A stretch of DNA of 64,000 nt from Branchiostoma floridae. Its lineage: Eukaryota. Shown here in pieces: positions 31,020-58,738 of this stretch (positions within the stretch are counted from its first letter, which is position 1; the number at the start of each line of letters is the position of its first letter). Location: assembly GCF_015852565.1 (NCBI RefSeq), contig NC_136205.1:3066707-3130706 (forward strand). The letters are read 5' to 3'. The translations under genes were made by a program, and so were the position numbers. The notes below the pieces were generated by a model, which saw only the letters and a list, made by a program, of their open reading frames with translations, was not told the DNA's origin and ran no database searches.

Positions 31020-32600
31020 CTGCATTCTATTCACCTTGTTTCCAATGACATAATTTCCGAAAACCAACATGCGTATAGAAAATCACACTCTACAGCTAGT
31101 GCCCTTATACAAATGTCTGACTACTGGTTGGGGGAGATAGATAAAGGGAATTTGATTGGCGCCGTTATGCTAGATTTTAGCGCGGCATTTGATGTCATTA
31201 ACCACGATATTTGTTTAGCCAAGCTTAAGAGCTATGGTTTTGAGGAATCTGCAATCAAGTGGGTACAGAGTTATCTTGGCAACAGGAAACAAGCTGTATT
31301 CGTTAACGGTAGTTTTTCCTCATATAAAGAATCCAGGTGCGGCGTTCCCCAAGGCAGCTGCCTGGGTCCATTGCTTTTCTCTATATTTGTCAATGATCTC
31401 CCCGCATTTACAAATAGTATAGTAGTCATGTACGCTGATGATTCAACGCCCTCAGCATCGGCTCCCACTGTCGCGAAATTGAAATACAAATTGCAGACTG
31501 ACTTGGAGCGAATCTGGAATTGGGTACAAACTAATCATCTTGTTCTCAATATTGGAAAAACTAAATCAATCATGATGGGTACGCAACAAAAACTAAAACG
31601 TAATCCCAAATTAGAACTAAGAATAGATGGAACAGACATTACACATGTAGAACAGGCTGAACTGTTAGGTCTCACTATAGACCAACGTCTCACATGGGGA
31701 TCGCATATTGACAAAACGAAGAATAAAATGGCAGGCATACTAGCCACAATAAGACGACACAGGAAGTACTTCACAAAAAGTATATTGAGATCTGTTATTC
31801 AGGCTCTGGTTTTGTCACACATTGACTACGGCTCAGTGCTGCTATCCTCTGCACCACAGACACACATAGATGGTCTTCAGGTGGTCCAGAATCGCGCTGC
31901 TCGCCTGGCCACAAACAAGCCCTTTGACACCAACCTGGAAGACCTACACATGCAGTTAAAGTGGCAAACCGTTAAAGAAAGACTCTTCACAAATACTGTA
32001 TGTACATTCCACAAAATTGTTAAGGAAAGGCAACCCCAATGCATCTTCAAGCAATTACAAACAATTCAATCCACACATGAGCATCACACGAGGCTGTCTA
32101 CTAGAGGAGCATTCACTCAATCAAAACCCAAAACAAACGCTAAAACAAGGACATTTGGCTACAGATGCATCAAAACCTATAACACATTGCCAAACACAAC
32201 GACATCATACAACAACATTGAGTTCAAATCTAGGATAAAAGAGCTTGCGAAAACACGAGACAAAAGACAACCCCTGAGCACATGGTGGTAATGATTTTTA
32301 TATTTCAGTATATCTAAGTTATATATTTATGTTGTGTTATTAGTACACTTTTGATTGGATTGTGTTTCAATCAATTAAGTTAACTTCTTCTGCTATTCAT
32401 TATTTGTTATGTATGATCACTTCTTTATTTTGACCTCTGACCTCTGCTTATTATTTTGCTTATTATTTTACGCTAATTATCCGCTTTTGATGTTAAGTTG
32501 TTTCTTTTTCATTTCATGTATTTTATTTATTCTTATTATTATGACTCCAGGAAGAGTAGTGGCATGATTTTATGATGTACACTAATGGAGATCGCAACAA
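31020..32600 (+). mobile_element. 5'-truncated non-LTR (LINE) retrotransposon fragment with a reverse-transcriptase ORF, lying in the PARP4 intron between exons 13 and 14
   Basis: ORF 31113-32291 carries RT motifs: AVMLDFSAAFDVINHD, CGVPQGSCLGPLLF, YADD, and a thumb-like C-terminus. Confidence 0.8.
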
Positions 32601-38469: not shown

Positions 38470-39150
38470 CATTCTAATGAAATCTTGTTTCATCTGTCCT
38501 TGGTGCTGATTGGCTGTTGCATAGGTAGTCTTCTCCTATGTAATGATTATAAACTTATCTTACCTTGGTGCTTATTGGCTGTGACATAAAGAAGTCCTCT
38601 TTCAAATGATTCTATTTCATCTTTCCTTGGTGCTGATTGGCTATCACATAAGGTGGTCTCATTTCAAATGATTCTATTTCATCTTAAGTTGGGTTCTGAT
38701 TGGCTGTGACATTAAGCAGTCTCCTTTCAAATGATTATATTCTATCTCTCCTTGGTGCTGATTGGCTATTACATGAGCAGTCTCATTTCAAATAATTTTG
38801 TTTTATTTAGTTAATGCTGATGGCTTGGAATTTAGGCAGTCTTCTTTCAGATGGTTCTATTTTATTTCTCCTTGGTGCTGATTGGCTATCACATGAAACA
38901 ATCTCATTTCAAATGATTCTATTTCATCCTACGTTGGTGCCAATTGACTATCACATGAGGCGGTCTCATTTCAAATGATTATATTTCATCTTACATTTTA
39001 CTGATTGGCTGGAACTTGAGGCAGTTTCTTTCGAGTGATTTTATCTAGCTTTCCTTGGTTCTGATTTGCTATCATCTCATGCAATGTTATTAAAACTAGT
39101 CTATTTTATCTCTCCTTGGTGCTGATATGCTATCACGTTGTGTAGTCTTT
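38470..39150. repeat. Same CCAAT-containing minisatellite, block 2 (~11 units), in the PARP4 intron between exons 22 and 23
   Basis: Repeated tccttggtgctgattggctatcacatgag…tctcatttcaaatgattctatttcatc units with variants. Confidence 0.75.
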
Positions 39151-41039: not shown

Positions 41040-41210
41040 GTGAAAGCCCAGCTGTGGAAAGCTGCCCAGCCCGGCCTGACGTCCATGTCAGTTGATTGGC
41101 AGCAGTGGGATGATGATGCCCCGCCTCCTGTCCAGGCCCCCAATCAGATCGTCTCTCTCTTCAACGGTTTCCGTCAAGTGGTGTATGGCTACGTCCCACA
41201 CTGCACTCAG
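41040..41210 (+). CDS. PARP4: PARP4 exon 25
   Basis: attcctag|VKAQLWKAAQPGLTSMSVDWQQWDDDAPPPVQAPNQIVSLFNGFRQVVYGYVPHCTQ|gtcaaa. Matches human VKWQQLNPDAPEALQAPAQVPSLFLNDRLLVYGFIPHCTQ. Confidence 0.9.
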
Positions 41211-41612
41211 GTCAAAACATTCCAATATACATGTAGTACCTGTCAACTTGTAAACCTGAGTCTGTAAACTTGTAAAATGCAAAACTTTGTACTAATTTGT
41301 ACCAGGTCTCAATGTTGTGCTCTTTGGAATTTAGGCACAATATCCACACTCATCAGAATGAATACCACAGTATCCATTTTTATTAGAATGAATACCTAAC
41401 TGTTGTTAGTGTCACTAAAATGAGTGATGCTGAAGAAGAGTGATGGATGTCACTTGAAATGTCCGTTTTTTTATCCAGTTGTTGGGATTGAATTGTATTT
41501 GAATATTGTTTACCTGGGTGTCCAACCTTCATAAAGGACTTCTCAAACTAATCTGAAACATGGCTAATCATTCTAAAATGAAAAAGTTTGTAATTGAAAT
41601 TACTGTAAATGT

Positions 41613-41815
41613 ATTTAAGTTCGCGGCGATTTAATTTTGCGGGAGTGGGAAATGGACTTTTCACCGTGGTTTTAATTTTGCAGTAACACCATAGACTACA
41701 GTCTAATACCATAAAGAAAAATGTTCGCGGTGGTTTTAAGTTTGCGGTGAGGTGGTCTCCGCGAAAACAGCTAGCATTAATCCACCACGAACATTTCTGC
41801 ATTTACAGTATTGTT
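41613..41815. mobile_element. Same MITE family, copy 3, in a PARP4 intron
   Basis: ta|ctgtaaatgtatttaagttcgcgg…cacgaacatttctgcatttacag|ta. Confidence 0.7.
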
Positions 41816-41829
41816 TTTATTTATTCCAG

Positions 41830-41910
41830 GCCACCCTGAAGGCTGTCATCAACAACCGGGAAATCAGCACCATGGTCTCCACCACTGAACTCAGCATCAC
41901 CACAGGCAAG
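41830..41910 (+). CDS. PARP4: PARP4 exon 26
   Basis: tattccag|ATLKAVINNREISTMVSTTELSITTGK|gtggga. Matches human ATLCALIQEKEFRTMVSTTELQKTTG. Confidence 0.9.
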
Positions 41911-42407
41911 GTGGGACAGGTTTTTGGCTACACCTCTGGGGTGGAGGCCATATTTCTTTTTAATAGCTGGGATTATTTCCTGTAACCAGGCATTTTAATT
42001 TGTTTGTTGATTGTTTATTTAAGGATTGAGACCTATACTAAACATACATGAGCAAAAGAGAAATAAAGCAACAGCTGCAGTAACAACACAGAATAAGAAC
42101 ATTCATACAACATTTTGGCAACTGTCTGTCACCTTCCTCAGAGCAATTCTGAGGGCCACTACACATTTTAGCTAAGGTGTCGCTGCTAGCAATGCACGTT
42201 AGGAACTATGACAGCCATTTATGCGTTCCCAAATATAACATTATACATATAACATATATTGATCACAATGATTGTTGTCATATATAAAATTACAGATGCC
42301 GACAGTCAGTAGATCCTGGTTGTGAATAAAAAAAATGTTACATTATAATAGTGATTTTCCAACCTGACTAAATGATTCAAAGGACTAACCACACAGTTTT
42401 GTCCCAG

Positions 42408-42488
42408 ATCCTGCACCAGCTGACGGCCCGTGCTGTCATCAGAGACTGGGAGGACGGGACCCTGCATGCAGACAGGATGCACCATGAG
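42408..42488 (+). CDS. PARP4: PARP4 exon 27
   Basis: gtcccag|ILHQLTARAVIRDWEDGTLHADRMHHE|gtcagc. Matches human MIHKLAARALIRDYEDGILHENETSHE. Confidence 0.9.
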
Positions 42489-42952
42489 GTCAGCGTGTTC
42501 TAAATCCTGACATTGAGAATCAGTGTGGTATTCCTCATGTCATGTGTGGCTGTGCTGGGTGGTTGTCTTTGTAGTACCGTAGCACAGTTTTCGTTGCTCA
42601 TTTGTACATTCTGCGGTCATGATCTTCTAATGGTTGATAGGTCTTTGGCTCATGAAAAAGTGGTATAATTTTGGGCCCTCTGGCAGCTTTTTTTAAACTG
42701 TAGGAGGCGATGTTTGAAAAAAAGAGTAAGGCAGGTAGGGGTTGACGGATTGTCACAATTTTTGCTATGTAGATGGCTTAAGAGATAATTGACATACTTA
42801 GTTGGCTTGTGTAAAGGGGTATAGTTTGGGGCTCTTTGGCAGCTTTTTTTGTAACTGCAGGAGCAGGATCTTCATGAATTTTGGTTAAAAAAAAACTTTG
42901 TAGATGGCTTTAGAGATAATTGACATGCTTATCTTTCTCTCTTTTTTTCCAG

Positions 42953-43054
42953 ACAAAGAAAATGGGTCTGAAGCCGTACATTATCGACCTTAGTAAGGAG
43001 TACTCCATCGTCACACAGTTCACCAGCTTTGTAGCTGTGGAGAAGCGGGAAAAG
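42953..43054 (+). CDS. PARP4: PARP4 exon 28
   Basis: ttttccag|TKKMGLKPYIIDLSKEYSIVTQFTSFVAVEKREK|gtgaga. Matches human MKKQTLKSLIIKLSKENSLITQFTSFVAVEKRDE. Confidence 0.9.
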
Positions 43055-43529
43055 GTGAGAAAAATTTTGGTGACACCAAGGGAACAGAACTTGTACTTGT
43101 AACAGTTACTGTAAGTGTGGAAATAACTCATAAGCCAGAGCGAAAAAAAAAAAAATCCATGAAAACAAAAATTCTGCCAAACCACAGGACTAAACATCCA
43201 GACCATTTTTTCCCAGGCTTGGTTTGTCTTATGGTCCACATCCAGTAAACCTGTAAGATACAATCATCGCCATTTCAATAAATATTTATTCATTTATTGC
43301 TATTCTTGTTCAAAGAGGGGAACGCCCCATGCCCTGACCATTTGCCCCCTTACCCTGAGGAGCGGATCCTCTGACAGTTATAAAATTCTGATTAACCAGG
43401 GGTAGTTTAAGGACAAACGTGGGCATAGTTTGTTTGTTTTTTGAGAAAAGGGGAAAAGCAACACACTCACGGATGTTATTCATAGAATGAAGTCAGTGTG
43501 GCCTATGACATAATGATTGTTTGATGCAG

Positions 43530-43657
43530 GATGAAGATCTGACTACCGGTGAGGGTCCAAGCATCACAGAACTGGTGGAAAAAGAGAGTGTGGACATCCT
43601 ATCCTACATGGGATGGGAGAGGGACAAAGGGGAAGAGGAGGCAGAGGAAGTGTATAA
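43530..43657 (+). CDS. PARP4: PARP4 exon 29 (ends in a basic NLS-like stretch)
   Basis: gatgcag|DEDLTTGEGPSITELVEKESVDILSYMGWERTKGKRRQRKCI(+AG)|gtatga. Matches human NESPFPDIPKVSELIAKEDVDFLPYMSWQGE...KRKHRK. Leaves phase 2. Confidence 0.75.
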
Positions 43658-43785
43658 GGTATGAGCCAAATTAAAGTGGAATTTTGGCTTGCTTTAAAAT
43701 GAAAGATTTTTGTGAAGAAAATCAAGTACGTGTGCCTTAAATTTTTTGACTGGACATCGCATAGTTTCTTGTATTCAATTTCTAG

Positions 43786-44187
43786 AATAAAGTGCTTGAT
43801 GGACAGATCACAGAAAAGGCCATTGAACACAGCTTGGAGTTCTACACCACTGCAGTGGAGACTGCAAAAAGGGAGCTTCCCCCAACCCATCCAACAGTGT
43901 TGCAGTCACAGCTCTCTTTGGCAATGTTTTATCACAACAAATTGAATATGCAGGACAAGGCCTGCCTGGTTGCAAAGGCTGCCTTTGACGATGCGATCGC
44001 GGAGTTGGATACTCTGAGCAAGGAAAGCTACAAGGACTCGACCTTGGTGATGCAGCAGTTGAGAGACAACTTGACATTGTGGTCTGCTGAGGACGGGGAA
44101 GAAGAGAAAAAAGCCAACGAAAAGAAAAAGGTCCTTATTCCTAGTGTCAACCATAGCTCACTTTGGCTAATCAACCTTCTCGGATGA
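43786..44187 (+). CDS. Intact ORF encoding a 14-3-3 protein C-terminal half (helices 7-9, including 14-3-3 signature 2). It is embedded between PARP4 exons 29 and 30. Its status is unresolved: it could be an exonized module, a nested-gene exon or a young pseudogene fragment.
   Basis: [109 protein letters not shown]. Compare 14-3-3 epsilon [42 protein letters not shown]...[41 protein letters not shown]. The frame is open from the tttctag| acceptor-like site at 43785 to the TGA at 44185. It is not in phase with the exon-29 donor when obvious splice sites are used. Confidence 0.5.
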
Positions 44188-44194
44188 AGCCCAT

Positions 44195-44575
44195 CTTACA
44201 TACCCAACCATGGCCTCGCGACCTTCTCCAGACCATGGTTGGGAGTTAAGCCCCTGTCACACATAGCCGACCATGCCCTCCCAACCTTCTTCAGACCATG
44301 GTCAGGAGTTAAGCCCTTGTCTTACATACCTGACCATGGCCTCCCAACCTTCTCCAGACCATGGTCAGGAGTTAAGCCCTTGTCTTACATACCTGACCAT
44401 GGCCTCCCAACCTTCTCCAGACCATGGTCAGGAGTTAAGCCCTTGTCTTACATACCTGACCATGGCCTCCCAACCTTCTCCAGACCATGGTTGGGAGTTA
44501 AGCCCGTCTTACATACCCAACCATGGCCTCGCGACCTTCTCCAGACCATGGTTGGGAGTGAGACCATCAGTAATT
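44195..44575. repeat. Tandem array (~6 copies) of a 63-bp (3n) unit with internal palindromes (catacctgaccatgg…ccatggtcagg). It is open in two reading frames.
   Basis: ccatggtcaggagttaagcccttgtcttacatacctgaccatggcctcccaaccttctccaga repeated. ORFs 44239-44613 and 44273-44632 are open only because of the 3n periodicity. Confidence 0.7.
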
Positions 44576-45028
44576 TGGACCAGACCAAACTTGGCAAAGT
44601 CATATTCTTCTAAGGTGCAAGCAGATTGGTAAAATGGAATATGGTTGGTAGCAAGTCATTGAAAGGTCCTGAATTTGTGACAGGGGATGTGACTAGTACA
44701 TAATTTTGCATGGAAACGGGAATAGACCGACTGAGTGTGCTTGTTAAAACTAAGAGTAGATTATCTTCAAGACCAGAATCTTCAAATTACCAATTGAATT
44801 TATCATAACTTTTCTATATTTGATGTTGTCAACAGGTCATAGAGGAAGTTTATTATGAAGAGGTTTTAATGGGAGGTAAGATACCAATTAATCTTTAATT
44901 TACATTTAGTTTAACCTTGTATTAAGTTGGAATTTATTGAATGGTTGATCATGAGATTTCAACACCAAGGACTCTATTGAAATGCACATCTTGATTTTGT
45001 TTTGGTATTTTTATTTTCCAACTTCTAG

Positions 45029-45169
45029 ACTTGGATGATTTTGACATGGAGGACCCTGAGTATCTAGAAATGGGAGGTGCTGGTGTTTCCTCCAGCACAG
45101 AGGAGACAGAATCTGATGACTCGTGGGGATCAGATTCAGATCTAGATGAAGAGAGTGAATGTGAGGAAG
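45029..45169 (+). CDS. PARP4: PARP4 C-terminal-region exon 30 (acidic)
   Basis: cttctag|(x)LDDFDMEDPEYLEMGGAGVSSSTEETESDDSWGSDSDLDEESECEE(G)|gtaaga. Phase 1 in and out. It chains in phase to the next two exons. Confidence 0.55.
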
Positions 45170-46037
45170 GTAAGAAACTAGTTGGAAATCTTTAACGATG
45201 TATCTGCCCATCATTGCCAATCATCATCATCATATCTTGTCGCTCCATCTCCTTATCCAGCTGCGGGCTGCCTCATTGGCCTCTCTTAAGCTAAGGGCAC
45301 AACCTGCCGTACATACAATTTGTCTGTATGTTTTTTTAGGCCACGTTCCCCACATATGTCTGGAAACGCTTCGTCCGTACTGGCACATAGGGGGGCAAAT
45401 CCGCAGCCCGAGGGCACACAAAGTTTTGCCTGCACGTAAAGTTCTACAGCGTGTCTGCGTGCTCCGTCGGATTCTCTACGAGTTTGTATGGAGGCGGTAC
45501 TTACCACTTACGGATCCCAAAAGATTGCCCACGTATTTGCATGTACAGCGGGCTGTGCCCTTAGCTTTAGGTCACTGTCCGAGCAGGTTGGGCCAAGTTC
45601 ACAGTTTTGTAACAGATGTTGTATTGTTTGCAGCTCTGCTCAGTATGGGCAGGCTGCACTTGCAGATTTGTCCAATTTCATTTCCAATAACGTTTTCCCT
45701 AGAGTTTTGTTTATTTGATGTTTTTGGTTTTGATGTTGCTTAGACTGGAGATGGTTCGCTAGACCTAGTGGTTGACCAGTCAGGTTTGACTCACTGTGGA
45801 CTGCATATTTACTTTTGAATTATTCTATTGTAAATGCCCATATGGTTGTTTTATGTTCACAGTTTCACTGTTGCCGCTTTACCACATACTCAAACCACTA
45901 GGAACATTTCTCCATGACAGTAAATTGTTGCTACAGTATATGGTGCTATTGCATGTGAACTCAAAAAGTCCATTTTCCTGCTTCTGCAAAATCAGATCCC
46001 TGCAAACTTAATTGCATGTACTGTATCTTGTTCACAG

Positions 46038-46133
46038 GAGGTAAGGAAACAGTAAGAAAGAAAGATTCATCATCACCAGAGGAGGAAGAGAGTGAAGAAG
46101 AGATGGGGTTTGGATTGTTTGATGATGGTGAAG
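46038..46133 (+). CDS. PARP4: PARP4 C-terminal-region exon 31, carrying a ribosomal P-protein-like tail motif (SPEEEESEEEMGFGLFDD)
   Basis: ttcacag|GGKETVRKKDSSSPEEEESEEEMGFGLFDDGE(G)|gtagga. Phase 1 in and out. Confidence 0.55.
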
Positions 46134-46398
46134 GTAGGATGGCAGGTGAGATGGTAGAGTACTGTAAATCTTGAGATGCATGGTTTTCATGGTGACATCT
46201 CCACCATGATACAATCGCCATACAAACAGCCCGGCTGGGCCCTGGGTTATAGAAATGTGACTTAGTCCTTACTGTTACCTAGTTTAATAAAAGAGACAAC
46301 GAAAAAGAACTGCAGTCAAAAATCATACTTTTGACACTTTTTGTTGGGCTCCGTTTTTCAAAGACACTAACTCTTGAATCTTTCTATTTCTTCAACAG

Positions 46399-48751
46399 CT
46401 GCTGATGAAAAAGAGGGTTCTCCTCTTGCTGATACTTATCAGATGAAGGCTAATGCCTTGCAATTGGAAAAAGGTCGATTTGCATCTCCCATGAGGTCTA
46501 GATCAAGGTCAAGGTCAGATAAACATTCCTCTCCAGCATACAGCCCGACATCTCCAGCATATAGCCCAGCATCTCCAGCATATAGCCCGACTTCACCTAC
46601 TGAGGAAGCCACAGAGGCTGAGTACACAAAGCCTAAACCTCTAGCTCGGAAAATGGCACCAAAACGGGTCGAAAAGGAGAAGGCACCAAGCCCACACTTC
46701 TCAAAGATGTCTGCAACGTTCTTGACCCGAGAATCTGAAAGGGGAAAGTCCTCATACAGAGTGTCAGATGAAGTTCAGGCTCGTGTAGATCGCCTTGATG
46801 ATCTAGTAGAAAAAGCTGATGCTCTTAGTGCACAAGCTGCAATATTTGGTGCTTCAACAACCATTTCTAAAGATGATGGCCTCTTTGCCGGTTCAACAGA
46901 GGCAAGTGTGCAGAAACCTAAACCTTTTGAATCCAAGCCAGGTATCGTTCAACCTGCCAGATTTACTTATGAAGCAACACCAGATACTACCAAGGGTCTT
47001 TTTGGCAGAAAGGCTGAACCAGAGACTGCAGGGTTTGCTCTTGCCCAGTCTGTGGCCGCAGAAGAGCCAGCTCCTGCTTTTGGTTTTGGAGCTCCAGTTG
47101 CAAGCTTTGGTGCAGAAACTTATGGAACTCGTGGTGTAGACTTGGATGCACCCATACCGTATGGCAAAATCCCAGTTGGTGGAACGCCGTTTGGTGAAAC
47201 GCCAGTTAGTGGAAAGCCGTTTGGTGAATCTGCTGTAAAGTTTGGAGGTCCTCCTGGCACTGTAGCTGGCACAAAGACGCAAGAGACTGCATTTGGTCAG
47301 GGTTTTGGTTATGCTTCAAGTCGTGGTGTAGGCTTTGGTAAAGCAACATTTGGTGAAGCAACATATGGCACACCATTTGGTGGAACACCATTTGCTGCAA
47401 CCACAGGTCTTTTTGCCCACTCAACTGCACCAAAGGATCAGGAAGCTGTGTCATTTGGTTTTGCTCCCTCTACTGACCAGAGCACAAGGGGTGGTGGAGG
47501 ATCCGCAGGTGGTTTTAGCTTTGGTTGGACTGCATCATCAGATTTGGGACAGAGGGATCGAGACAGGAGCTCCCCCCTAATTGGTGACACAAAAAAAGGA
47601 TTCAAGTTTGGAGCCTCACTTGAAGAGAAAGAAGAAACAGCAAGCTTTAGCTTTGGTGGATCCAGCCAGAAAGTGGTTCCTCAAGCAGGTTTTGGAGCTG
47701 ATCAACAGATGCAGCAGCAACAACAGCAACAACAACAACAGGCTCAGATGAATGTCTCTGATACTGCTCCTCAGAGGAAGATGCGAAGCAGGCTTCATGG
47801 CGCTATAGCTACCTTAAGTGAATCCAGTCAAGCAGAAATGGTTCCTGAAGCAGGTTTTATCTCCAATCAACGGATGCAGCAGCAACAGGCTCAGATGGAT
47901 GTTCTTCTTACTGCTCCTCCGAGGACAGGTGGTGGAAGGGTTCATGGCGCTTTAACTAGATTAGACGAATCCAGTCAAGCAAAAGTGGTTCCTCAAGCAC
48001 GTGTTGGCTCTCGAGCTCCTCAAAAAGCGAGGAAGACAACTGGCGGCAAGGCTGTTAGAGTTTCTTCAGGATTCAAGGACAGCTTGGACATCGTAGACAA
48101 GAGTTCACGCGACACTGGTGACTCTTGGAGAGCTGTCAAACGGACCGAGACCCCCATGGCTGGTTATTTTGACATGAGGGCCATGTCCCCTGCCTCAACA
48201 AATTCTGCACAGTCAGTTGCTTTTCAACAGCTGTCAGCATCTGCTGCCTTTCTACAGGCACCCCCTCCTGCGCCACCCCCTTGTTCAACAGGCCCCCCTC
48301 CTCTTCCACCCCGCTGCCCAGCAGGACCCCCTCCTCCAGCTGGTGCCCCTCCCCCACCACCACCACCCCCTAAGGGCATTCAGCTTCTTAAACCAAGAGC
48401 AAGTTTAAAGTCCAAAGCAGTAATGGCAGCACCCATGCGTGCACTATCCATGCCCTCGAAAGAATATGCCCCATTGCCCCCTCCTCCTCCAAGTTCAGTC
48501 GAACAGGCACCAGAGCTACCAGCATGGGATAGAGAAGAAGAACTGCAAATGGGGATTGTTGAAGAAAGCCGTGCAATTGCTTCGTATGAACAGATGGAAG
48601 AGTTAAAACCATTGTCAAGAAGTTTGGAATTGAGACAAAAGAAGAAAAAGAAACAGTTCGAAATCCAGGCAAGGTTGGAGGAAGAAAAGGTATCATTGGA
48701 CAAAGTCATGTACATGGATGAAAGCGTTCAAGAAGGAGAGGAAATGTACAG
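46399..48751 (+). CDS. PARP4: PARP4 giant low-complexity exon 32 (784 codons) with five modules: SPAYSPT CTD-like heptads, FG/GF repeats, polyQ, an FH1-like polyproline run and a basic KKKKKQFEIQARLEEEK tail
   Basis: Single ORF 46374-48755. The acceptor ttcaacag|CT at 46398 is in phase with exon 31. The donor ATGTACAG|gtaaga at 48751 is in phase with exon 33. The position corresponds to the Pro/Ser-rich disordered region of human PARP4. Confidence 0.65.
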
Positions 48752-49442
48752 GTAAGAGTGAAGTCAACAAAGTACAGTCTCTACCTAATTAGATGAATGT
48801 GAAATTTTCCACAAATCGGGGGAATATTTTATCTGAGAGCTTGCAATTGCCTGGTTAATGTAGTACAGGCTTGTCCGCTGAAGATTGTAACTTGTAACTG
48901 TAGCCCTTTGGCCAATTTCTACTGATTTTTCACATAAACCACAGTCTCATAGGGACTAAATGAAATGTTTGATTTATGTAATTGTGGCAAACATGTTGCC
49001 TACCTGAGCTTTTCAAAGGAAAAATGTAAAGTTTCAATAAAGTTAACGTAAATTACTTTCAAGGACCAATTTAGGGACTATTCTTGACAATTGAACTACA
49101 TGTAAATCCAAGGTTACACAAAGCTTACCATAAAAGTGTACAACTTGTGATAACAGTCATTATTTTCCACATAAAGCAGTGTTCAAGTTTGTGGGCACGG
49201 GTCAATGGTATGCAAATGTATTGTGTCGTCTTAACTTTATTCTTTAAAGTAGGGGTTCTTTGCATTGAGCAATTTCATGATATTCATACAATGCCACATC
49301 GTTGTAAACACCACAGAAGACAGTATCTCTTTTGTTTAGTATTTTTGTTTGATGTCAGCCTGTTGTTACATGATTGTGTATAATTATGCCTTTGTCATCT
49401 TGTTCATGACTTTTGTAACATGTATTACAAACTTTATTTCAG

Positions 49443-49519
49443 GACCAGTTTGAGGGGGTTTTACGGTCCAAGAAGAGGTCCCGGTGCATATCACTCTGCC
49501 AGCTTTCATCTAACCTCAG
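49443..49519 (+). CDS. PARP4: PARP4 exon 33
   Basis: tatttcag|(R)TSLRGFYGPRRGPGAYHSASFHLTS|gtaggt. Matches human GFGSYHPSASSPFHFQPS. Confidence 0.6.
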
Positions 49520-49978
49520 GTAGGTTAATCAATTCATGTGCAAAGTAAGGCTAATATCAGTAGTCTAAGACTAGATGGAGAGCTTTTTTATATAGTCATC
49601 CAAAGATCTAAACTTCATTGAAATATCATGATAGGACCGTTGATCATTGAAATAGCATTGAAAGATGTTGTAGGTCACTAAAATATCATTAGTAAGACCA
49701 TACTTCAAATGGGGGCATGGGTTCGTATCCCACTTCTGACACCATATTGGCTTAGAGATTATCTCAGTCGTAGACTTAAAATGCTCAACATTTCTTGTCC
49801 CAAAGAACTAATTGCCAAGGTACAATGGACCTGTAAATACTGTACACAGTGTCCATCTTACCTGTCATGACCAGTGCAGATGTTAGTAATGACTGACTAA
49901 GAAAAAAGAAATTGCACAAATGTCTAATCTGAAAAATGATGCTCACAAGTAATCATGTTTTTTTTCAACCCTCTGCAG

Positions 49979-50079
49979 GTTCCTTTAGTGGAAGAGAAAT
50001 TGATGTAGTACCTGTCGTGACCACAAGGGGGAGGGTCATCACAGAGACAACTGTTGACCAAATCTTTGCACTGCTAAAG
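49979..50079 (+). CDS. PARP4: PARP4 exon 34
   Basis: ctctgcag|(G)SFSGREIDVVPVVTTRGRVITETTVDQIFALLK|gtatca. Phase-consistent. Confidence 0.55.
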
Positions 50080-50578
50080 GTATCATTTGTAATTATTGGT
50101 TCAAATATAAAGTATAGTAGCTCTAGTTTTAGAGTGATGAATTACTGTAACATTAACACTGAATTTATTCTTTTTTGAGTGGGAGATTAGAATTGGTCTT
50201 GCACCCATCCATAATTTGACTGTTTTTTTGACAGTTTACTGCGTACTCGGATGCCAAAATGTTCTTTTATTCTTTATTGCAGGCGCTAATAGGCCCATAG
50301 TAAAAGCCTACTGTATAAGACACACAACATAACATAGATATTAAAACAACAATGCCACTCTATGTGTACAAGCGCCTCCTGATGTTTTTGAAATATTATT
50401 GTGTTATGGTAGAAAGAATCCAACTAGATGGAATGGGAAGAGTGGAAAAGCGGAATATACAAAAGAACGTTTGCGTCATGATAGAGTAATATTAGCATAG
50501 ATAATACCATAGTTTACTCATATAGCTAAAACCCAAGGATAAAACAATCAAATTTAATTATATTGCCCCCCTCCCCAG

Positions 50579-50693
50579 CACACTGACCAGGGGCTCTCCT
50601 ACTGGGAGTTCAGTCCAGAGTTAGACGAGTTGCTTGGGATTTCCAGTCAGCAGTGCATCCAGATATTTAACACTGCAGGACTCAAATCTCTGG
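50579..50693 (+). CDS. PARP4: PARP4 exon 35 (MVP-interaction region)
   Basis: ctccccag|HTDQGLSYWEFSPELDELLGISSQQCIQIFNTAGLKSL(G)|gtaaga. Matches human TEDGFWKLTPELGLILNLNTNGLHSFLKQKGIQSLG. Confidence 0.85.
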
Positions 50694-51244
50694 GTAAGAT
50701 CTCATTCATGATCATGGTCATAAGGATATGTGTCCATACATGTAGTCAGGTCAGATGACAACTGTTTCCCTCCTGTCAACAGTCTTTCAGCCTGCAAAAA
50801 GAATCTTCACATCTATTTCCTTGCATGATACTAAGTAATTTTCGCAAACCCATCAACTTAGTTCATTGCCTAGAAGTGGTCAAATGGTCTTGCTTTGATC
50901 AAGCCATATTGCATTAACAAAAGGTAAAGAAATGAAATAAGGAATGAATGAAGACCTTTATTCTACATTTTTGCCCAACTGAACTAAGCACAGGTCACAA
51001 GAAAGACAAAACACACAATGTTATGCAAAAGTACAATATTATTTGTATCATAGATCTAATCTAGTGAAGAAGTTTGGCTTCTTCTCCCTTCCTGGTAATG
51101 GTAAAAATGTAGGCTTGTATGTTGTTAGGTTTGTCAAAATGCAACTCATATCTATTAAGTGAATCTACTTCCTATTTCTATCATTAACATAGTGCATAGT
51201 CCAATCAACAACGAAGTGAACTTCATCTTCATTTATCTTCATCT

Positions 51245-51330
51245 CCAGGTGTGAATGTTGCCAGGCAGATACTGCAGCTGGTGGCCACCTTTGAACAAGC
51301 TCGTACAAAAAACATTGAAAAATACCTTTA
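51245..51330 (+). pseudogene. Degenerate partial duplicate of PARP4 exon 36 (…VNVARQILQLVATFEQARTKNIEKYL*)
   Basis: ttcatctccag|GTGTGAATGTTGCCAGGCAGATACTGCAGCTGGTGGCCACC... has the same acceptor and first 45 nt as the exon at 51380, then diverges to a stop. Confidence 0.6.
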
Positions 51331-51379
51331 AGTTAGCACTGAGTGGGACATAATTTTTTATTTTTATTTTGATCTCCAG

Positions 51380-51555
51380 GTGCGAATGTTGCCAGGCAGC
51401 TGCTGCAGCTGGTGGCCACCTTGCTGGTTGTGCAGCTGCTGATGCTGCACCTGCCGCAGCTGTTCCCCAGCTGCAGGAGCCTGCTGCACCTGGATGTGGC
51501 GCAGGTGCCGGCCAAGTGGTGCAGTGCATTGCAGCAGGTGCTCACATGGGCCAAG
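51380..51555 (+). CDS. PARP4: PARP4 exon 36 (MVP-interaction region)
   Basis: atctccag|(G)ANVARQLLQLVATLLVVQLLMLHLPQLFPSCRSLLHLDVAQVPAKWCSALQQVLTWAK|gtagga. Matches human RECLLDLIATMLVLQFIRTRLEKEGIVFKSLMKMDDASISRNIPWAFEAIKQASEWVRR. Confidence 0.8.
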
Positions 51556-51654
51556 GTAGGATTTTGTACTACAAAACTACCAAAACTAGACTGAGTTTGT
51601 ACTACAAAAACTTAATTTGTATACACTTGTTGCAAGAAGAGGAAAGAGACATGT

Positions 51655-51870
51655 AAATGATAGATGTAATAATAGTGGCGCAGGCGTCAGCCACTTGGTG
51701 CAGCACACTGCAACAGGTGCTCACATCGGCCAAGGTAGGAGTTACCTACTGATAATATGAGGGGCAATCAATAAGTTTACACAGAAAAAAGGTGCACAAC
51801 TCAAATTTTGGAGCATTATAAACTATATGAATGTGCACCAAAATTCAATGGGCCAAGGTAGGAGTTGGCT
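51655..51870 (+). repeat. Two extra copies of the exon-36 3' end plus donor junction (…CAACAGGTGCTCACATCGGCCAAG|gtaggag) and downstream intron start
   Basis: 51690-51740 and 51845-51870 repeat the sequence GGGCCAAGgtaggagtt...gaggggcaatcaataag. Confidence 0.6.
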
Positions 51871-52353
51871 ACTTAGTATGAGGGGTGATCAATAAATTCT
51901 TGGACTCATGAATAAAGGTGCTTAACTCAGATTTTGGATCTGATGTAAAGTATAAAGTATTATATGAATTTGTACCATAATTCAAATCATTGTGATCATT
52001 ATTGTACAGGCAACACCCAGTAATGGTAGGTAAGAGAGAAGAAAAAACATGGACAATTGAGCTGCAAGCTGAGGTGTGCATGTCAACTTGTTCTGCTAAA
52101 TGTCGGATACTAATAAAAGAATTAGGCACTGAAGAGGACGAATTTGAAAGAGAAATCAAGAAGCTTAAGATCACACCAATGTTCACTCATCAGGTATAAG
52201 CTTTGTTGTACTGTTGACCAATCGCTTACGTGACATGAATTATGAGGAAGACTGCAGTTGAAATTTCTATGTACTATTTTCTTGTGGTGGAACAAAATTT
52301 TAATTCTGTTATCATATAAATCTATTCGTTTATTAATTTTTCTATTTTCACAG

Positions 52354-52452
52354 AGTGTTGACACGATGCACCCATCAGTGTACTCCCGTTTGGAGCTTGG
52401 GAAGAGTTGGGAGGACCTGACCACAAAGCTGATCGGTGTCAGCAATGCATAG
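52354..52452 (+). CDS. PARP4: PARP4 terminal exon 37 with stop codon
   Basis: ttttcacag|SVDTMHPSVYSRLELGKSWEDLTTKLIGVSNA*. Matches the human C-terminus YPSICPRLELGNDWDSATKQLLGLQP. Confidence 0.85.
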   Translation, partial: SVDTMHPSVYSRLELGKSWEDLTTKLIGVSNA

Positions 52453-53440: not shown

Positions 53441-54929
53441 TATCTTTGTGTGAATGGCCAGCTATGTGTAGCAGTATGGTTGTTGTAACCATACACTAAC
53501 CTTGTTTGAATGGGTCATGGTTTGTTATGGTTTTGGTGTGTGTGTGCGAAATAGTGGTTTGATCATTACTACAATGGTCTAATCTGATTTTGTACCCCTC
53601 AAAACATGGAGACACCAGAATAATTATTTTTGTAGCAGGTGTGGTTACAGTGATATTGACAAAAACAAGATTTTCTGTAAAACTGCCAAAATGGTGGTGT
53701 GATCATTACAAACATGGATTAATCTGGTTATTTATCCTTCGAAACATGGGGATAGACACCAAAATCAATTTGATACCATGTGAAGTTACTGAGATATTGA
53801 CAAAAAGAAGACTTTTCTTAATAAGTTAATGGCCGCCCTACTTTGCATATTGTGCGTATTGCCTAATGATGACAGAATGGCATAATCCAGATTCTTATAG
53901 AGCACACCTCAGAGGCATAGAAACATCAAAAGAACTTTGTATGAATTACATTGCAAGGTTATGTAAAAATATGGGGTTTGGCAACCAAACTAAGTCTTGT
54001 GTGGTAAGTATCAATGTGGTCGCTATGTTCATGTTGTAACAAAGACATTATAAAATGAAGGTATTGAAGTCAAAAGGCCAGTAACATTCTGTGCATAGTA
54101 AGAAAACAGTTTGTAATATATAGTTGTCAGGCACATGGCAGTATTGTATATCAGTAATAGTATCAAAATGACACAATGAAGAACTGGTAACCTTTAGCGC
54201 AAAACACCTGATCATCTGTAACACTGGACACACAACCATATAAATACAGTGTAGGTCCTAGTCATGACTTCCACTGGCACAATTTAAAGCCACCCTTCAT
54301 TCCAGATATCACATGACATCCCAACCATTTACCCAACATAAATATCAAATCCTATGATAAACATTTACACCAAAACAAGGTACAAACACACACAACCATA
54401 CAACATCGCAATACATCATCGCATATGACTATCAGTACAATAGACAACAAAAACAAGGGTATACATAATCTACAAAAAAAAACATACACATACCACTCTC
54501 TTACGCTAACACACTATCTCCTTCTCCTCCACCTTAGAAACTCGTCTCTTCTTGCGTTTCCCCATGATGACCAAACACGCTCATAACCTCGTATCACAAG
54601 TATAGAGGCTTGTACAGGACTGAAAGCAACACTTTAGCCTTCAGCACCACAACTTATACCTGACCAATCAATACAGCAGCAGATTAAACCAACCTACAAG
54701 CACTCTTAGAACAGAAGCCACTGATGTGATTTGTAACAACAGCACAGCCTGCTGTGACCACAAGCAAGCAGACCTACATGTACTAGTATCATCTGTTTCT
54801 TAGGAACAAATCCACTGCAGGATATCTAAAATTAGACCTGTCACTCAAACAGCCACACAAACCGTCATCTGGGTTCACAACCAAGCAGATATGAGTAGAC
54901 CTGCCCCAACCAAAAAAAAAACAGCATCA

Positions 54930-55530
54930 GCCTACAGTGTCAAGTTCAAGCACTAGGAGGCCCAAAATCAAACCTGACCACCAGGACACAAGCAACAATC
55001 CACGTAACAAATAGCAACACAATGGCACCTTGCGTTCCGGAGATACAGCGCACGCGCCGTGCCCGCAGAAAAGGTAACCTGGAATGTCAAGTTCAAGCAC
55101 CAAGGGCGCCAAAATCAAAATTGAGAATTATTCAGCCACCACCAACACATGTGCCAAATATCATTGCGCCCGCACCAACCGTTCAGAAGATATAACTCCG
55201 GAAAACCCCCTCCCCGACACAAAATTCGACCTGCCGCGTCAGGTTCAAACGCGACAAGGCCCAAAGTCAATCCTAGGCAACAAGCAACAACTCCCCACCC
55301 ATGCACCGAAAATCGTCGCAATGGCGCGTATCGTTCCGGACACACAGCGCCAAAAGTGCCCCAAAAAACACAAAAAATGCCACCTTCAATATTAAGTTCA
55401 AGCACCAGGAGGCCCAAAATCAAACCTGAGTGTCAAGCTAACACCCCCAACCCACGTACCAAAAATCGTCGTGCTCGCACCATCCGTTCTCGAGATACAG
55501 CGCCCTAAATCCCCAGCTTCCAAAAGTTCC
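54930..55530. repeat. ~150-160-bp tandem (satellite-like) repeat, ~3.5 copies
   Basis: Units start caagttcaagcac(c/t)a(g/a)g(a/g)ggcccaaaatcaaa and contain ccgttc(c/a)g(g/a)agata(c/t)a. Confidence 0.6.
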
Positions 55531-57316
55531 CACGCCCCTGAAAACCATACCTGCATACATGCAGGTAATTACACAAACATAAATACCCACATACACATAC
55601 ATGTACACACATAATTACACACTGTCAGACACATATAAATACATACACGCGCATACAAGCACTCACATGTAGGATGCAGACAATACCTACATTTGCATAC
55701 ATTATTAAGAATGGTCTGGAGCCTGCCCAAACTGGTTCTTCTGCATGTTTCCTTGTTTATCGCATTTGTGTCCAACCCACCAAACTGGGCGTCTCGGTAC
55801 AACGGTACAACATCTGCTGTATCTAGCTAATAATAACAAGACAGAAGACTTTTGGCTCATCAACCTAAAGACGGTATGTGGTCTTTGAATTCTATAGCTA
55901 TCACTTTTGTGTCTTACATTGGCGGCAAATACGACCAAGTTGTCGTAAGACGTTGAAACTCTTTAATGCTTCTCATTGTGTATATGTCCTCACACACCAG
56001 CAACGATTTTCCAACAACCTGCCTCAACCGTAATCATGCACGTTAGGGTTTTTGCCTTGCCGCCAGGCAAGGCTTTACGCCAGCTTTTTTCCATGGATCA
56101 ATGGACGGACCTTTTAACCCAGCCCTTCCAAAGCCCCTTCCAAAGGCCCTTCTTTCCTTGCCGAGTTTCATGGCTTAGTTAGACAATGGTACATTCCAGA
56201 CGAGTATTAAAACGCTCTTCTAGACGCATGTTACTGTATGTGGTCCAGCGTAATAAATCTACGCTTTAACTCACCATGTTCATATAAATATATATCACAA
56301 ATTGCATCAGAAGGAACTTAGTTTGTAATAAAAAATAATGCATATTCATTGTGGGTCAAAAAGTTTTACAAAACCTGTTTAATGTGCCAATAATTCATCT
56401 GACATAAATTATGATAATGAGGGGGAGGGGGGCGACATGTGGAACTCGGGATTTTTAAGCGTAGAATCTAGTCTAACTTACCAAAATAACATAAAATACG
56501 CGGCAAGGCACAGCTTTTTTAAAAAGATTTCTTGTTTGACAGCAGACCTTTTTCGTCTAGTAGTACGTTTCGGCACAGGTAATCCCGACTTAGAGATGGA
56601 GGGGGTAGAATGGTGATCCCGTTCTTGAGGAGAGTCACACATGTGCACATCGAGTACCTTTAAGGGCCCCACAACATGGAAATTGGTAAGCTAATAAGGG
56701 TTACTTGGGTGAGCGTAAGCAGTTCATAACCTTTATAATCTTAAATGAATTATCGACATCCTCGCAAATCAACCTTTGGCTTCAAATAGAGAGTAGTACT
56801 CAATGGCAGGCTCGATCTCATTCAAATGTGCAACATGTAGCGATTTAGTTTAGAAAAAATACACCAGCTTATGTTGAATAGATAACGTCGAAAGAATTGA
56901 ACAATGCTATAGTTGGCTACAGAAATTATTGACCATTATAGTAAAACATTTTACGGAAAGTATACTAGAAATGACTCAAACAGTCCTATGAAATCATAAG
57001 GTTCATTCAAATGCTTAGGTACCTCTGTTCCTTAGAAAGTCAGATAAACTGTACCGACTCACAATAAAGCTTTAACGTTAAACAGAGTACAAGAACAAGA
57101 ACAGTTACTGATCTAATCTGATCCTTGGACTTGCAACTGATCTGTGCTTAGGTGCACACGAGCAACTGCGCAGATGCCTGCTTTACACACGGTCAGACGT
57201 CATCTTGTCAACAATGGACACGAACCTGCTTAGGTTTGAAAAACGTCATCTTGTCAGCAATGGACACGAACCTGCTTAGGTTTGAAAGATGACATTTGGA
57301 ATATTTCCTGTTCTAG

Positions 57317-57454: not shown

Positions 57455-58639
57455 GTAAGCCTTGCTTAATACACCTTCAAACATTGTCTAACAGGCTGCT
57501 TTTATTTAGCAGTAAAACTTACGGACTTTTCATATTCACTTTTGGAACAGTCCATTTTTGCATGAGTTGTGAGATGGTTAGATATGCTGTATTTGTTCGC
57601 AAATATTACCCGTCTATTTGAATATTTTTACTTGGATGTCTGATCTCCAGGAGCCCGTGGCGTCCCGATTTTAATTTTTTTTTACACTTATCAGCTCGAT
57701 GAAAAATGGACCCTTCCAGCCGAACGCCATATCAAACAAATAGAATCCCCTGTTCTATTTCGAATACTCGGTCAAAAAGAGCCCTAGTGGGATAGGAGTA
57801 GCTAAAGAAAAAATGCTATGCCTTTTTTGTTGAAGACTACACCGGCCGAGTATAGTTGTTTTGGAAGGGTGGGCGCTACATACGTAGCATTACTTTGTTC
57901 CTGGGAAGGATGCACGTGCAAAGTGTGCGTAGTAGGGGCGGGATTCTGCAGTAGCGAACTTTAATTTTTAGTAGGGTCTTATATTTTGTATATGGATACT
58001 GAAGAGGACCTTCTTTTGTTCCTGTAGGTTATAACTGTTGTGTCGGCGTGTGGTGAGGAGAAGGTCATTGGCCACAAAAGCATTGCACACTAAGTAAGTG
58101 TGCCTTTTACATCGGAGGTAAGACAGTCTAATACCCTGGGGGCCAGACAGGATCGGGTAGCTAGCAATTTTTGTTCGGGGACCCAAAGCAGTCAGCCCGC
58201 CGATCTCACATAAGCGCTCCGGGGAGTTCAGCCGGAAGGAGTTATCGCTACGGAAATGGGCAGGTGGACATTCTTCGGGCTTAAACTCCCCGGAGCGCTG
58301 TTAGGAGATCGGCGGGCTGACTGTCTTGGGCCACCGAATGAACTGCCCAAGCTGCCCGATCCCGGCTGGCCCGTTGGGTACAGTCTAACCGAGCAGTTTG
58401 CAAACTGACATGATACCGGGTACCATTTGCTTCGGTGCCCGCAAGGAGCCCTGATGCCACAAAATGTTCCGGTGGACTGCCGGAGTGACTGGGAGGAGGT
58501 ACCTCTCGGTACTATTATGTTTATTGCAAATTCTTGCAGTAGAAAAGTAGTTGAAAGTTCTATGCACTATTTTCCCATGTTGAAATGTTTTGATTCTGTA
58601 ATACATTCATTCTTTTATTTTTCCTTTTTTTTCTCACAG

Positions 58640-58738
58640 GGTGTTTACGCGATGCACCCATCAGTGTACTACCGTTTGGAACTTGTGAAGAGTTGGGAGG
58701 ACCTGACCACAAAACTTATTGGTGTCAGCAATGTGTAG
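58640..58738 (+). pseudogene. Second copy of the PARP4 terminal exon (…GVYAMHPSVYYRLELVKSWEDLTTKLIGVSNV*), together with its upstream intron segment
   Basis: ttctcacag|GGTGTTTACGCGATGCACCCATCAGTGTACTACCGTTTGGAACTTGTGAAGAGTTGGGAGGACCTGACCACAAAACTTATTGGTGTCAGCAATGTGTAG is about 90% identical to 52354-52452. The upstream intron sequence is also duplicated. Confidence 0.7.

Follow-up and report, generated by a model that had tools for sequence, protein, structure and literature searches.

We analysed a 64,000-nucleotide window of the amphioxus Branchiostoma floridae genome (assembly GCF_015852565.1, contig NC_136205.1, positions 3,066,707 to 3,130,706), which carries at 21542-52452, from Met1 to the stop codon, a whole orthologue of the vault component PARP4 in ~45 exons, delimited by tblastn with a B. 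lanceolatum PARP4 model (P0062) and by assembly of 15 exons at its 3' end. All coordinates are those of the window, and features lie on the forward strand unless stated otherwise. The subject of this report is one exon of that gene, a giant linker exon of 2353 nt at 46399-48751 (783 full codons and a split codon at either end), whose translation combines extensive predicted disorder with short motifs that are conserved among Branchiostoma species and recur in the PARP4 proteins of distant lineages. An earlier note, made from the letters of this DNA alone, had described it as a single modular, largely low-complexity or disordered exon belonging to PARP4, and each part of that description is borne out. 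The splice sites are canonical (acceptor ...ttcaacag before CTGCTG at 46398/46399; donor GTACAG before gtaagagt at 48751/48752), the frame starting at 46401 has no stops over 783 codons against 23 and 47 in the other two, and at 40.7% GC a stretch of 794 codons without a stop would arise by chance with a probability of ~1e-22. The translation is 100% identical to residues 86-870 of P0001, an NCBI protein from a B. floridae x B. japonicum hybrid assembly, and the window is therefore amphioxus DNA. A disorder prediction, proposed in the earlier note as a check, was run with AlphaFold2 on the single sequence and describes a mostly disordered chain: mean confidence (pLDDT) is 40.7, it falls below 50 in 664 of 783 residues (85%), and only two helices, residues 123-150 and 708-782, are confidently predicted. 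Disorder-promoting residues make up 67% of the exon.

Membership in PARP4 follows from flank homology and from the joining of exons in one frame. Residues 1-1337 of P0062 are collinear with the window at 21542-44094 with 63-100% identity, and the domains listed for this protein are PARP_reg, PARP, VIT_2, VIT, VWA, VWA_3, VWA_2, 14-3-3 and two more, BRCT not being among the named families. The 15 exons between 41040 and 52452, all AG/GT-bounded, join into one uninterrupted 1372-codon frame that ends at the stop codon; its first 180 residues match human PARP4 1041-1217 (E 4e-53) and its last 125 match human PARP4 1582-1706, the MVP-interaction domain (MVP-ID; E 1e-12). The giant exon lies between these two regions, where human PARP4 has a disordered segment, as the earlier note had placed it. 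Skipping it would bring a stop after 3 codons, and any vault-anchored isoform therefore requires it.

Exons around the linker and the annotation of the locus

Upstream of the giant exon, five phase 0 exons follow the VWA region (41040-41210, 41830-41910, 42408-42488, 42953-43054 and 43530-43658) and encode the part homologous to human 1041-1217. The next exon, at 43786-44130, shares the PARP4 frame and encodes a 14-3-3 half-domain, the C-terminal one (Pfam 14-3-3, positions 122-223 of the 223-position profile, E 7.5e-30); it is included in P0062 and conserved in both B. belcheri and B. lanceolatum. A 40-nt exon, VIEEVYYEEVLMG, at 44836-44875 contains the ATG taken as the start of P0001, and two acidic exons lead up to the giant exon. 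Acidic exon 1 (45029-45169) has canonical splice sites and matches P0001 residues 3-52; acidic exon 2 (46038-46145) carries at 46079-46126 a copy of the ribosomal P-stalk C-terminal tail, EEEESEEEMGFGLFDD, which includes EEEMGFGLFDD, an acidic run followed by MGFGLFD, here internal rather than C-terminal. Its match to Pfam Ribosomal_60s covers profile positions 63-88 of 88 at E 0.002 and 19 bits, below the cutoff of 28.1, and the motif is kept in B. belcheri and B. lanceolatum. Downstream, a 77-nt exon, TSLRGFYGPRRGPGAYHSASFHLTS, at 49443-49519 joins the giant exon to the MVP-ID exons and is found in P0001, in the B. belcheri protein P0002 and in the B. lanceolatum protein P0042. The MVP-ID (human 1582-1706) is encoded by four exons at 49979-50079, 50579-50693, 51380-51555 and 52354-52452, the last with the stop codon. 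P0042 and a second NCBI protein of this locus, P0041, carry precomputed Pfam PF26156 (PARP4_MVP-ID); the Pfam copy used here gave no PF26156 match. P0001 itself ends in an alternative terminal coding piece, VSILPVMTSADVSND*, at 49850-49896, which probably sits in a dispersed repeat because its sequence matches an unrelated position of the B. belcheri locus. Read from the N-terminal side, the linker thus runs from the 14-3-3 half-domain through the P-stalk tail, an arginine-serine (RS) run with heptads of the RNA polymerase II C-terminal domain (CTD) type, a SNARE-like helix, a phenylalanine-glycine (FG) region, a glutamine-containing duplication, a histone H3-like string, polyproline and a K-rich helix to the MVP-ID.

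The public gene models divide this locus differently. In the NCBI annotation of this assembly it is represented by P0001 (910 aa, 'uncharacterized protein LOC144867646') and P0041 (177 aa, 'PARP4-like'), neither of which spans it, and the B. lanceolatum annotation likewise has two models, P0062 (1363 aa, head and 14-3-3) and P0042 (281 aa, exon tail and MVP-ID), with the 754-codon giant-exon open reading frame (ORF) between them left unannotated. Taken at face value, such models would place the exon in a transcription unit of its own (LOC144867646, 910 aa), with its own ATG at 44869 and its own terminal exon, nested between two PARP4-derived genes. Against this, the frame of the 40-nt exon is open upstream of the P0001 ATG and continuous with the 14-3-3 and VWA-side exons, P0041 consists of the MVP-ID only and takes its ATG from inside an intron, the last exon of P0001 falls within the probable dispersed repeat, and all 15 exons from 41040 to 52452 share one frame. 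P0002, annotated as parp4, links the post-VWA region, 14-3-3, the acidic exons, the giant exon and the MVP-ID, and the overlapping models of three species (P0002; P0062 from head to 14-3-3; P0042 from exon tail to MVP-ID) together cover every junction. Sponge, bivalve and lungfish PARP4 hold head and linker modules in one chain, the bivalve and lungfish proteins also with a C-terminal MVP-ID, and P0110, a continuous transcript-like ORF, combines a head with a P-stalk-like linker. On these frame and comparative grounds a separate gene is unlikely, and we would give that reading only a very small chance. The same observations strongly suggest that the PARP4 parts are carried on a single mRNA, and the giant exon is very probably the linker exon of PARP4, the splitting of the locus into two or three gene models in each of three Branchiostoma genomes being an annotation problem.

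Several further features of the window were noted in and around the gene. A tandem repeat at 30278-30706 (period 152 nt, 2.8 copies, 97% identical) contains copies of a PARP catalytic-domain exon, P0062 residues 502-535 matching 30300-30401, 30479-30553 and 30631-30789; it is either a very recent triplication of the exon with its flanks or an assembly artefact. PARP4 introns also hold a reverse-transcriptase (RVT_1) ORF fragment at 31113-32288 and repeat arrays at 44194-44559 (63 nt x5.8), 38488-39136 (62 nt x10.5) and 28200-28377 ((TGAG)45), and another array (235 nt x4.7) lies upstream of the gene at 5160-6263. About 6 kb downstream of the PARP4 stop, a diverged copy of the last MVP-ID exon (77% at the protein level) occupies 58637-58729. 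Some 7.5 kb downstream of the stop and on the opposite strand, an intronless 408-aa ORF at 60018-61244 matches Pfam PF20706 'GT4-conflict' (family 4 glycosyltransferase of conflict systems; E 3.3e-77) and may be a bacterial-type conflict-system gene adjoining PARP4 in an animal genome. The interval 54001-56000 has a strongly skewed composition (GC skew -0.27, AT skew +0.23) and many overlapping short ORFs.

Modules of the giant exon and their conservation in Branchiostoma

Near its 5' end, at 46494-46601, the giant exon encodes an RS run (SRSRSRS) followed by three CTD-type heptads, SPAYSPT SPAYSPA SPAYSPT SPT, at 46530-46601. They are built from a 21-nt x3 DNA repeat and reach 27.6 bits against Pfam RNA_pol_Rpb1_R (PF05001; cutoff 20.3), so that the three SPAYSPT-type heptads reported in the earlier note stand above the family threshold. 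At 46767-46850 there follows an R-SNARE (synaptobrevin)-like helix, VQARVDRLDDLVEKADALSAQAAIFGAS, predicted with pLDDT 84-93 and lacking a transmembrane anchor. Its Pfam Synaptobrevin match is 18.7 bits (E 0.0015) in the giant exon and 23.5 bits in B. belcheri, with a cutoff of 26.4, and its local ratio of nonsynonymous to synonymous substitution (dN/dS) is 0.24.

The FG/GF-rich region at 46845-47696 contains 15-nt and 30-nt DNA repeats and holds all 18 FG dipeptides of the exon, in PFG, FGFG and FSFG contexts; the exon also has 10 GF dipeptides. Shuffled sequences lead to an expectation of 3.3 +/- 1.7 FG with a maximum of 13 in 5000, so that the observed number is a strong enrichment (z ~7-8). 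FG is confined to exon residues 149-431, approximately 280 aa with ~1 FG per 16 residues; the enrichment described in the earlier note is real, and its length of ~400 residues is not. Because no Nucleoporin_FG or other nucleoporin Pfam profile matches the giant exon even at E up to 10, the nucleoporin-like label is one of composition and not of family membership. The region is followed at 47671-48010 by a tandem duplication of a 147-165-nt unit (~2.3 copies, 78-83% identity; DNA repeat families D2, D4 and D7) that includes a Q run, QQMQQQQQQQQQQAQ, at 47703-47747. This is the run that had been reported as Q12 at 47700-47745; it is present, with Q10 as its longest uninterrupted stretch.

A copy of the histone H3 tail, QKARKTTGGKAVR, lies at 48021-48059; it includes ARKTTGGKA and is identical to H3 residues 5-17, QTARKSTGGKAPR, at 10 of 13 positions, a score reached by 0 of 3000 shuffles. 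Polyproline occupies 48261-48491, as a block at 48261-48371, found exactly as the earlier note had quoted it, and a second PLPPPPP at 48471-48491, with a 33-nt x2.6 DNA repeat. The FH1/WH2-like character attributed to it is a compositional resemblance, scans of the giant exon and of its B. belcheri counterpart at E up to 10 having matched no FH1, FH2 or WH2 profile. The exon closes with a long K/E-rich helix at 48522-48749 (residues 708-782, pLDDT 75-94), including KKKKK at 48639-48653; a K-rich, coiled-coil-like tail had been described at this place, and AlphaFold2 predicts a K-rich helix. The H3-tail copy, the R-SNARE-like helix and the upstream 14-3-3 half-domain and P-stalk tail are additions to the modules that had been listed previously.

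Orthologous giant-exon ORFs are kept in both other species compared. In B. lanceolatum the ORF occupies 8018-10282 of locus L002 (GCA_927797965.1, OV696701.1) and is intact over 754 codons; in B. belcheri it lies at ~23516-25887 of locus L001, which is collinear with the window exon by exon, and is intact save for one 1-nt shift. Across the window, L001 and L002, pairwise identity is 36-51%, 166 of 579 shared columns are invariant and in-frame indels are many. Relative to B. belcheri the giant exon has a dN/dS of ~0.47 (dS ~0.8-0.9, near saturation), compared with 0.10-0.14 in the flanking folded exons (0.105 for the five post-VWA exons, 0.135 for the MVP-ID exons). At the protein level the exon is thus changing at four to five times the rate of its flanks, though not neutrally, and within some of its conserved islands dN/dS is 0.18-0.24. 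Comparison with orthologues had been proposed as a check in the earlier note.

The positions that are invariant across the three species include AYSPTSP, the SNARE-like helix (conserved pattern QAR.DRL.DL.EK.D.L.A....F.AST.IS), APAFGF, PFGGTPFA and RK.TGGKA.R. Further conserved islands are ASP..SRS, the polyproline core, KTQE.AFGQGF, PFGGTPFA...LF.H and GGFSFG. The H3-like core RK[ST]TGGKA.R is invariant, and its B. lanceolatum version, RKSTGGKA, equals H3 residues 8-15 exactly. Copy numbers are far more labile. There are three CTD heptads in the window and in B. lanceolatum and one in B. belcheri; polyproline is present in all three species, each with its own expansions, including (SSARPPPPPPP)x6 in B. 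lanceolatum; an FG unit of ~50 residues occurs in three copies in B. belcheri; and the Q-run unit is reduced to one short copy with Q5 in B. belcheri and is absent from B. lanceolatum. Between the motifs the sequence changes rapidly by tandem duplication and in-frame indels, with the motif islands retained.

The B. belcheri locus has a 1-nt frameshift at ~24466, inside the FG repeats, and a 65-nt GT..AG gap at 25630-25694, both of which the public model bridges with 'introns'. We rejected a pseudogene reading of this frameshift: the 1.3 kb beyond the shift is open in the new frame with conserved motifs, and the ORFs of the window and of B. lanceolatum are intact. The shift is probably an assembly error or a recent allele.

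Linker modules in other PARP4 proteins

Searches with the whole exon reach little beyond the genus. A word-indexed protein search returned P0001 (the exon itself), P0002 of B. belcheri and RPB1 CTDs only; in a PDB sequence search too, RPB1 CTDs were the only matches, and human PARP4 was not matched, its full 1724-aa chain being present there. A HMMER scan of 1.84 billion representatives, with the post-VWA region, the exon and the MVP-ID as query, gave 599 matches, and the exon part was matched by P0002 only. When the exon was compared segment by segment (phmmer) with the tails of 97 PARP4 proteins, partners outside Branchiostoma were found for the P-stalk and CTD modules only.

A different picture emerges if these tails are examined for modules. 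The comparison set consists of 97 PARP4 or PARP4-like sequences with an FTSFVAVE anchor, the tail being the part after the anchor; many are automated gene models, and some are continuous ORFs on short contigs or from transcriptome assemblies (P0110, P0145, P0199). FG is over-represented (z >= 3) in 30 of the 69 tails of at least 400 aa, including those of vertebrates, sea urchin and dictyostelids, and runs of at least 6 prolines occur in 38 of 97. Domains and fragments of other proteins are less frequent: 14-3-3 in 16 tails, ubiquitin, typically ending LRLRGG and then P, in 13, actin residues ~2-72 in 6, and an Hsp70 substrate-binding fragment in 3 by BLAST, to which Pfam adds a fourth, P0162. 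Among the short modules, P-stalk-type motifs were found in 12 of 97 tails, CTD heptads in 8-9, H3-tail strings in 4 and a VAMP-like SNARE motif in 4. The P-stalk, CTD and H3 motifs are absent from all 97 N-terminal heads (87,556 aa) and practically absent from shuffled tails.

Individual cases extend from amoebae to vertebrates, the named lineages with modules being dictyostelids, Mastigella, Sycon, Nematostella, Hydra, Mytilus, Magallana, Sinanodonta, a millipede, Lytechinus and Protopterus. CTD heptad arrays are present in the sponge Sycon, the bivalve Sinanodonta and dictyostelid amoebae, and H3-tail strings take the form RTKQTARRSTGGRAP in P0147 and GKAAPRKHLATKAARKSAS in the bivalve protein P0096. 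The PARP4-like protein of D. purpureum matches Pfam 14-3-3, Rpb1_R and Ribosomal_60s, the last at 43.7 bits and above its cutoff. By Pfam, Nematostella and oyster PARP4 carry an actin fragment and a bivalve PARP4 carries ubiquitin. In the lungfish Protopterus annectens (P0099), residues 1333-1385 form a synaptobrevin-type R-SNARE motif that is 65% identical to VAMP2 39-87 and above the Pfam Synaptobrevin cutoff (38.1 bits); the order in this protein, a degenerate acidic-GF.LFDD, the SNARE motif, an FG-rich part, polyproline and MVP-ID, parallels that in amphioxus. The Pfam-confirmed module carriers also have PARP catalytic, VIT and VWA domains, and BRCT too except in the N-terminally truncated P0145 and P0162.

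We considered whether the actin, ubiquitin and Hsp70 pieces might come from chimeric gene models, which is unlikely: partial fragments stand at similar positions in several phyla, and in P0145, a single uninterrupted ORF on a 4.2-kb contig, ubiquitin stands together with fragments of actin and Hsp70. Further continuous ORFs that disfavour chimerism are P0110 (a 5.8-kb Logan contig) and a Mastigella Trinity transcript.

These observations bear on the suggestion of the earlier note that the exon is a lineage-specific and unusual elaboration, which we do not uphold: a large, disordered, hypervariable exon is known in vertebrate PARP4 (PMC4038475), and the same module classes occur in many lineages. 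What is lineage-specific in the amphioxus exon is limited to the Q run, with the 147-nt duplication around it, and the numbers of repeat copies. Human exon 30 is the largest PARP4 exon and encodes ~360 disordered residues. Its region differs in length from one vertebrate to another, has been subject to recurrent positive selection and was put forward as a host-pathogen interface (Daugherty et al. 2014, PMC4038475). Suskiewicz et al. 2023 (PMC10450202) locate that region between the ITIH-like part and the MVP-ID and raise the possibility that it is a target of viral cleavage or modification. The giant exon is the positional and architectural counterpart of human PARP4 exon 30, for which we claim no alignable sequence homology.

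Possible roles of the linker

The giant exon very probably makes up most of an amphioxus PARP4 linker of ~1060 residues, tying the enzymatic and ITIH-like head (BRCT, PARP catalytic, VIT, VWA) to the MVP-ID on the inner vault wall. Lodwick et al. 2025 (PMC12280208) show that PARP4 is fixed to the vault wall by its C-terminus and that its domains are connected through long disordered regions. In the explanation that we regard as best, the linker would act as a long, mostly disordered leash that gives the head mobility in the vault lumen, and would display along its length short motifs copying the interaction epitopes of abundant host proteins, namely CTD heptads, an R-SNARE-like helix, FG, an H3 tail segment and polyproline; separate upstream exons would contribute the 14-3-3 half-domain and the ribosomal P-stalk tail. 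Proteins that recognise these epitopes, be they host factors or pathogen effectors, would then be docked beside the ADP-ribosyltransferase. We hold this combination of tether and motif display with about even confidence; that the motifs bind partners, and which ones, is what we infer. Cargo docking, as put forward in the earlier note, is compatible with short motifs that are conserved and sit on a disordered tether. A linker exon that is large and disordered is nothing new in itself; apart from its positive selection in mammals there has been no evolutionary clue to what vaults, and PARP4 within them, do, a question that has stood for decades. What is new is that readable motifs reveal a comparative pattern: recognisable copies of exposed epitopes, or of fragments, from a few abundant host proteins turn up again and again in the PARP4 linkers of amoebae, sponge, cnidarians, molluscs, a millipede, sea urchin, amphioxus and lungfish. 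If this pattern holds, 'disordered and fast-evolving' would become a concrete list of candidate ligands that is experimentally approachable.

Several observations weigh against a PARP4 linker exon displaying copied motifs. Every public annotation splits the locus, NCBI placing the exon in an 'uncharacterized' gene that has a start codon of its own and ends in another exon, and the B. belcheri exon has a 1-nt frameshift in its FG repeats. The giant exon is unalignable with any PARP4 linker outside Branchiostoma, and many of the proteins with which it was compared are automated gene models. The Synaptobrevin and Ribosomal_60s matches of the window are below Pfam cutoffs, and the H3-like resemblance is a 13-residue motif that was spotted post hoc. 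Finally, DNA tandem repeats underlie the heptads, PFG units, polyproline and Q run, all of which slippage alone could have generated.

This last point leads to one alternative, that the linker is a passive entropic spacer, a flexible leash of drifting length and composition on which heptads, FG, polyproline and Q run are by-products of slippage. Much of the exon does derive from DNA tandem repeats (21, 15/30, 33 and 147-165 nt, and CAA/CAG), their copy numbers vary among the three species, dN/dS is four to five times that of the flanks and near 1 in polyproline and several FG blocks, and the exon cannot be aligned beyond the genus. Yet a spacer made purely by slippage is contradicted because motifs are both invariant and recurrent: the islands are unchanged in three species despite dS ~0.6-0.9, and MGFGLFD after an acidic run, YSPTSPS arrays, H3 strings and the SNARE motif recur in distant linkers and never in heads or shuffled tails. 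Slippage, moreover, does not yield a 10/13 match to H3. We consider a passive spacer distinctly unlikely. Still less probable, in our estimation, is the proposal of the earlier note that FG-, Q- and proline-rich sequence forms a phase-separation scaffold, condensing PARP4 or cargo in or around vaults. The composition, FG-, Q- and RS-rich and mostly disordered, would suit such a role, ~10-20 PARP4 per vault would give a high local concentration (PMC4038475; bioRxiv 10.64898/2026.05.01.722283), and condensates have been mentioned as a possibility for PARP disordered regions (PMC10450202). The FG density is modest, however, at 18 in 280 residues, with neither a cohesive GLFG-type array nor a Nucleoporin_FG match, the Q run is absent in B. 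lanceolatum, and phase separation leaves the conserved motifs that are not of low complexity (H3-like, SNARE-like, P-stalk) unexplained.

A narrower version of the motif-displaying tether would have its host-like modules serve as integrated decoys, luring the toxins and effectors that attack the copied proteins: ribosome-inactivating proteins at the P-stalk tail, SNARE proteases, and effectors acting on the CTD, H3, FG-nucleoporins, actin, ubiquitin and 14-3-3. An effector that bound or cleaved the linker would be caught in the vault, or would set off a tripwire by which PARP4 is freed or activated. The recurrent positive selection on human exon 30 and its proposed role as a host-pathogen interface (PMC4038475), together with the viral cleavage or modification site suggested in that region (PMC10450202), are in keeping with such a role, and the GFGLFD tail is the docking site of the ricin A chain (PMC6628406). 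The copied proteins are also non-random, all of them abundant, highly conserved hubs represented by exposed epitopes or fragments only (actin 2-72, the substrate-binding part of Hsp70, ubiquitin with Pro after GG), modules are found in bacterivorous amoebae as well, and the vault also contains TEP1, a TIR-like NADase related to an antiphage system (bioRxiv 10.64898/2026.05.01.722283). This case is entirely circumstantial, with no effector known to bind PARP4 linkers; the dN/dS of the amphioxus exon is below 1, so that no positive selection is demonstrated here; the linker is thought to be within the vault lumen, where effector access is uncertain; and choosing 'famous' targets post hoc inflates the pattern. 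We therefore regard a pathogen bait as unlikely, though less so than a passive spacer. Slightly more room must be left for a broader formulation, still tentative, in which the PARP4 linker would be an ancient modular array of copied host epitopes (P-stalk tail, CTD, H3 tail, R-SNARE, FG, actin N-terminal fragment, non-cleavable ubiquitin, 14-3-3 and Hsp70 fragment) tethered in the vault as bait for either pathogen toxins and effectors or host readers. Were this so, vault and PARP4 would constitute a decoy-based device for surveillance or capture, conserved from Amoebozoa to chordates, and the hypervariability of the exon in vertebrates would be explained.

Copies of effector targets within immune-linked proteins are familiar from the integrated decoys of plant nucleotide-binding leucine-rich repeat (NLR) receptors and from the 'tripwire' mimic sites in NLRP1 and CARD8. 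The idea is shared, by analogy only: PARP4 has no NLR module and no effector interaction is known for it. Within its own family, 14-3-3 has been reported as an appendage of PARP4-like (clade 5) proteins of B. floridae, sea urchin, Capsaspora and amoebae, and actin or ubiquitin-related domains in some PARP4-like proteins (Perina et al. 2014, PMC4245714). These belong to the same family and the same C-terminal accretion zone as the modules described here, where 14-3-3, ubiquitin, actin and Hsp70 are confirmed by Pfam; that study dealt with whole domains, read as links to signalling and the cytoskeleton, and not with short-motif copies or the giant exon. Our literature search, in an incomplete library, found no paper with CTD, P-stalk, H3 or SNARE motif copies in PARP4, nor a unifying reading of them.

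With the RPB1 CTD the exon shares tandem heptads that fit YSPTSPS and exceed the Rpb1_R cutoff; the amphioxus heptads differ in numbering only three, in having Ala or Thr at position 7, in having no attached polymerase and in their origin from a 21-nt DNA repeat. With FG nucleoporins it shares a spacing of ~1 FG per 16 residues in a disordered, S/T/G/P-rich context that includes FSFG and FGFG, whereas it lacks a Nucleoporin_FG match and a domain for anchoring in the nuclear pore complex, and its array is short with irregular spacers.

The closest comparison remains vertebrate exon 30. The amphioxus exon is more than twice as long (784 aa versus ~360 aa), its pairwise dN/dS is 0.47 where values in primates exceed 1, and its motifs include CTD heptads, a SNARE-like helix and an H3-tail copy, with exons for 14-3-3 and the P-stalk tail in front of it; inspection by eye of one mammalian PARP4, P0068 (the human linker sequence was not included), revealed none of these. 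The two nevertheless occupy the same position in the same gene, between the FTSFVAVEKR...VD.LPYM.W segment and the MVP-ID, each is one very large exon with predicted disorder, and the FG and proline enrichment of the amphioxus exon is shared with many vertebrate linkers. If the pattern of copied motifs holds, the vertebrate linker, in which no such motifs can be read, may be the same device in diverged form.

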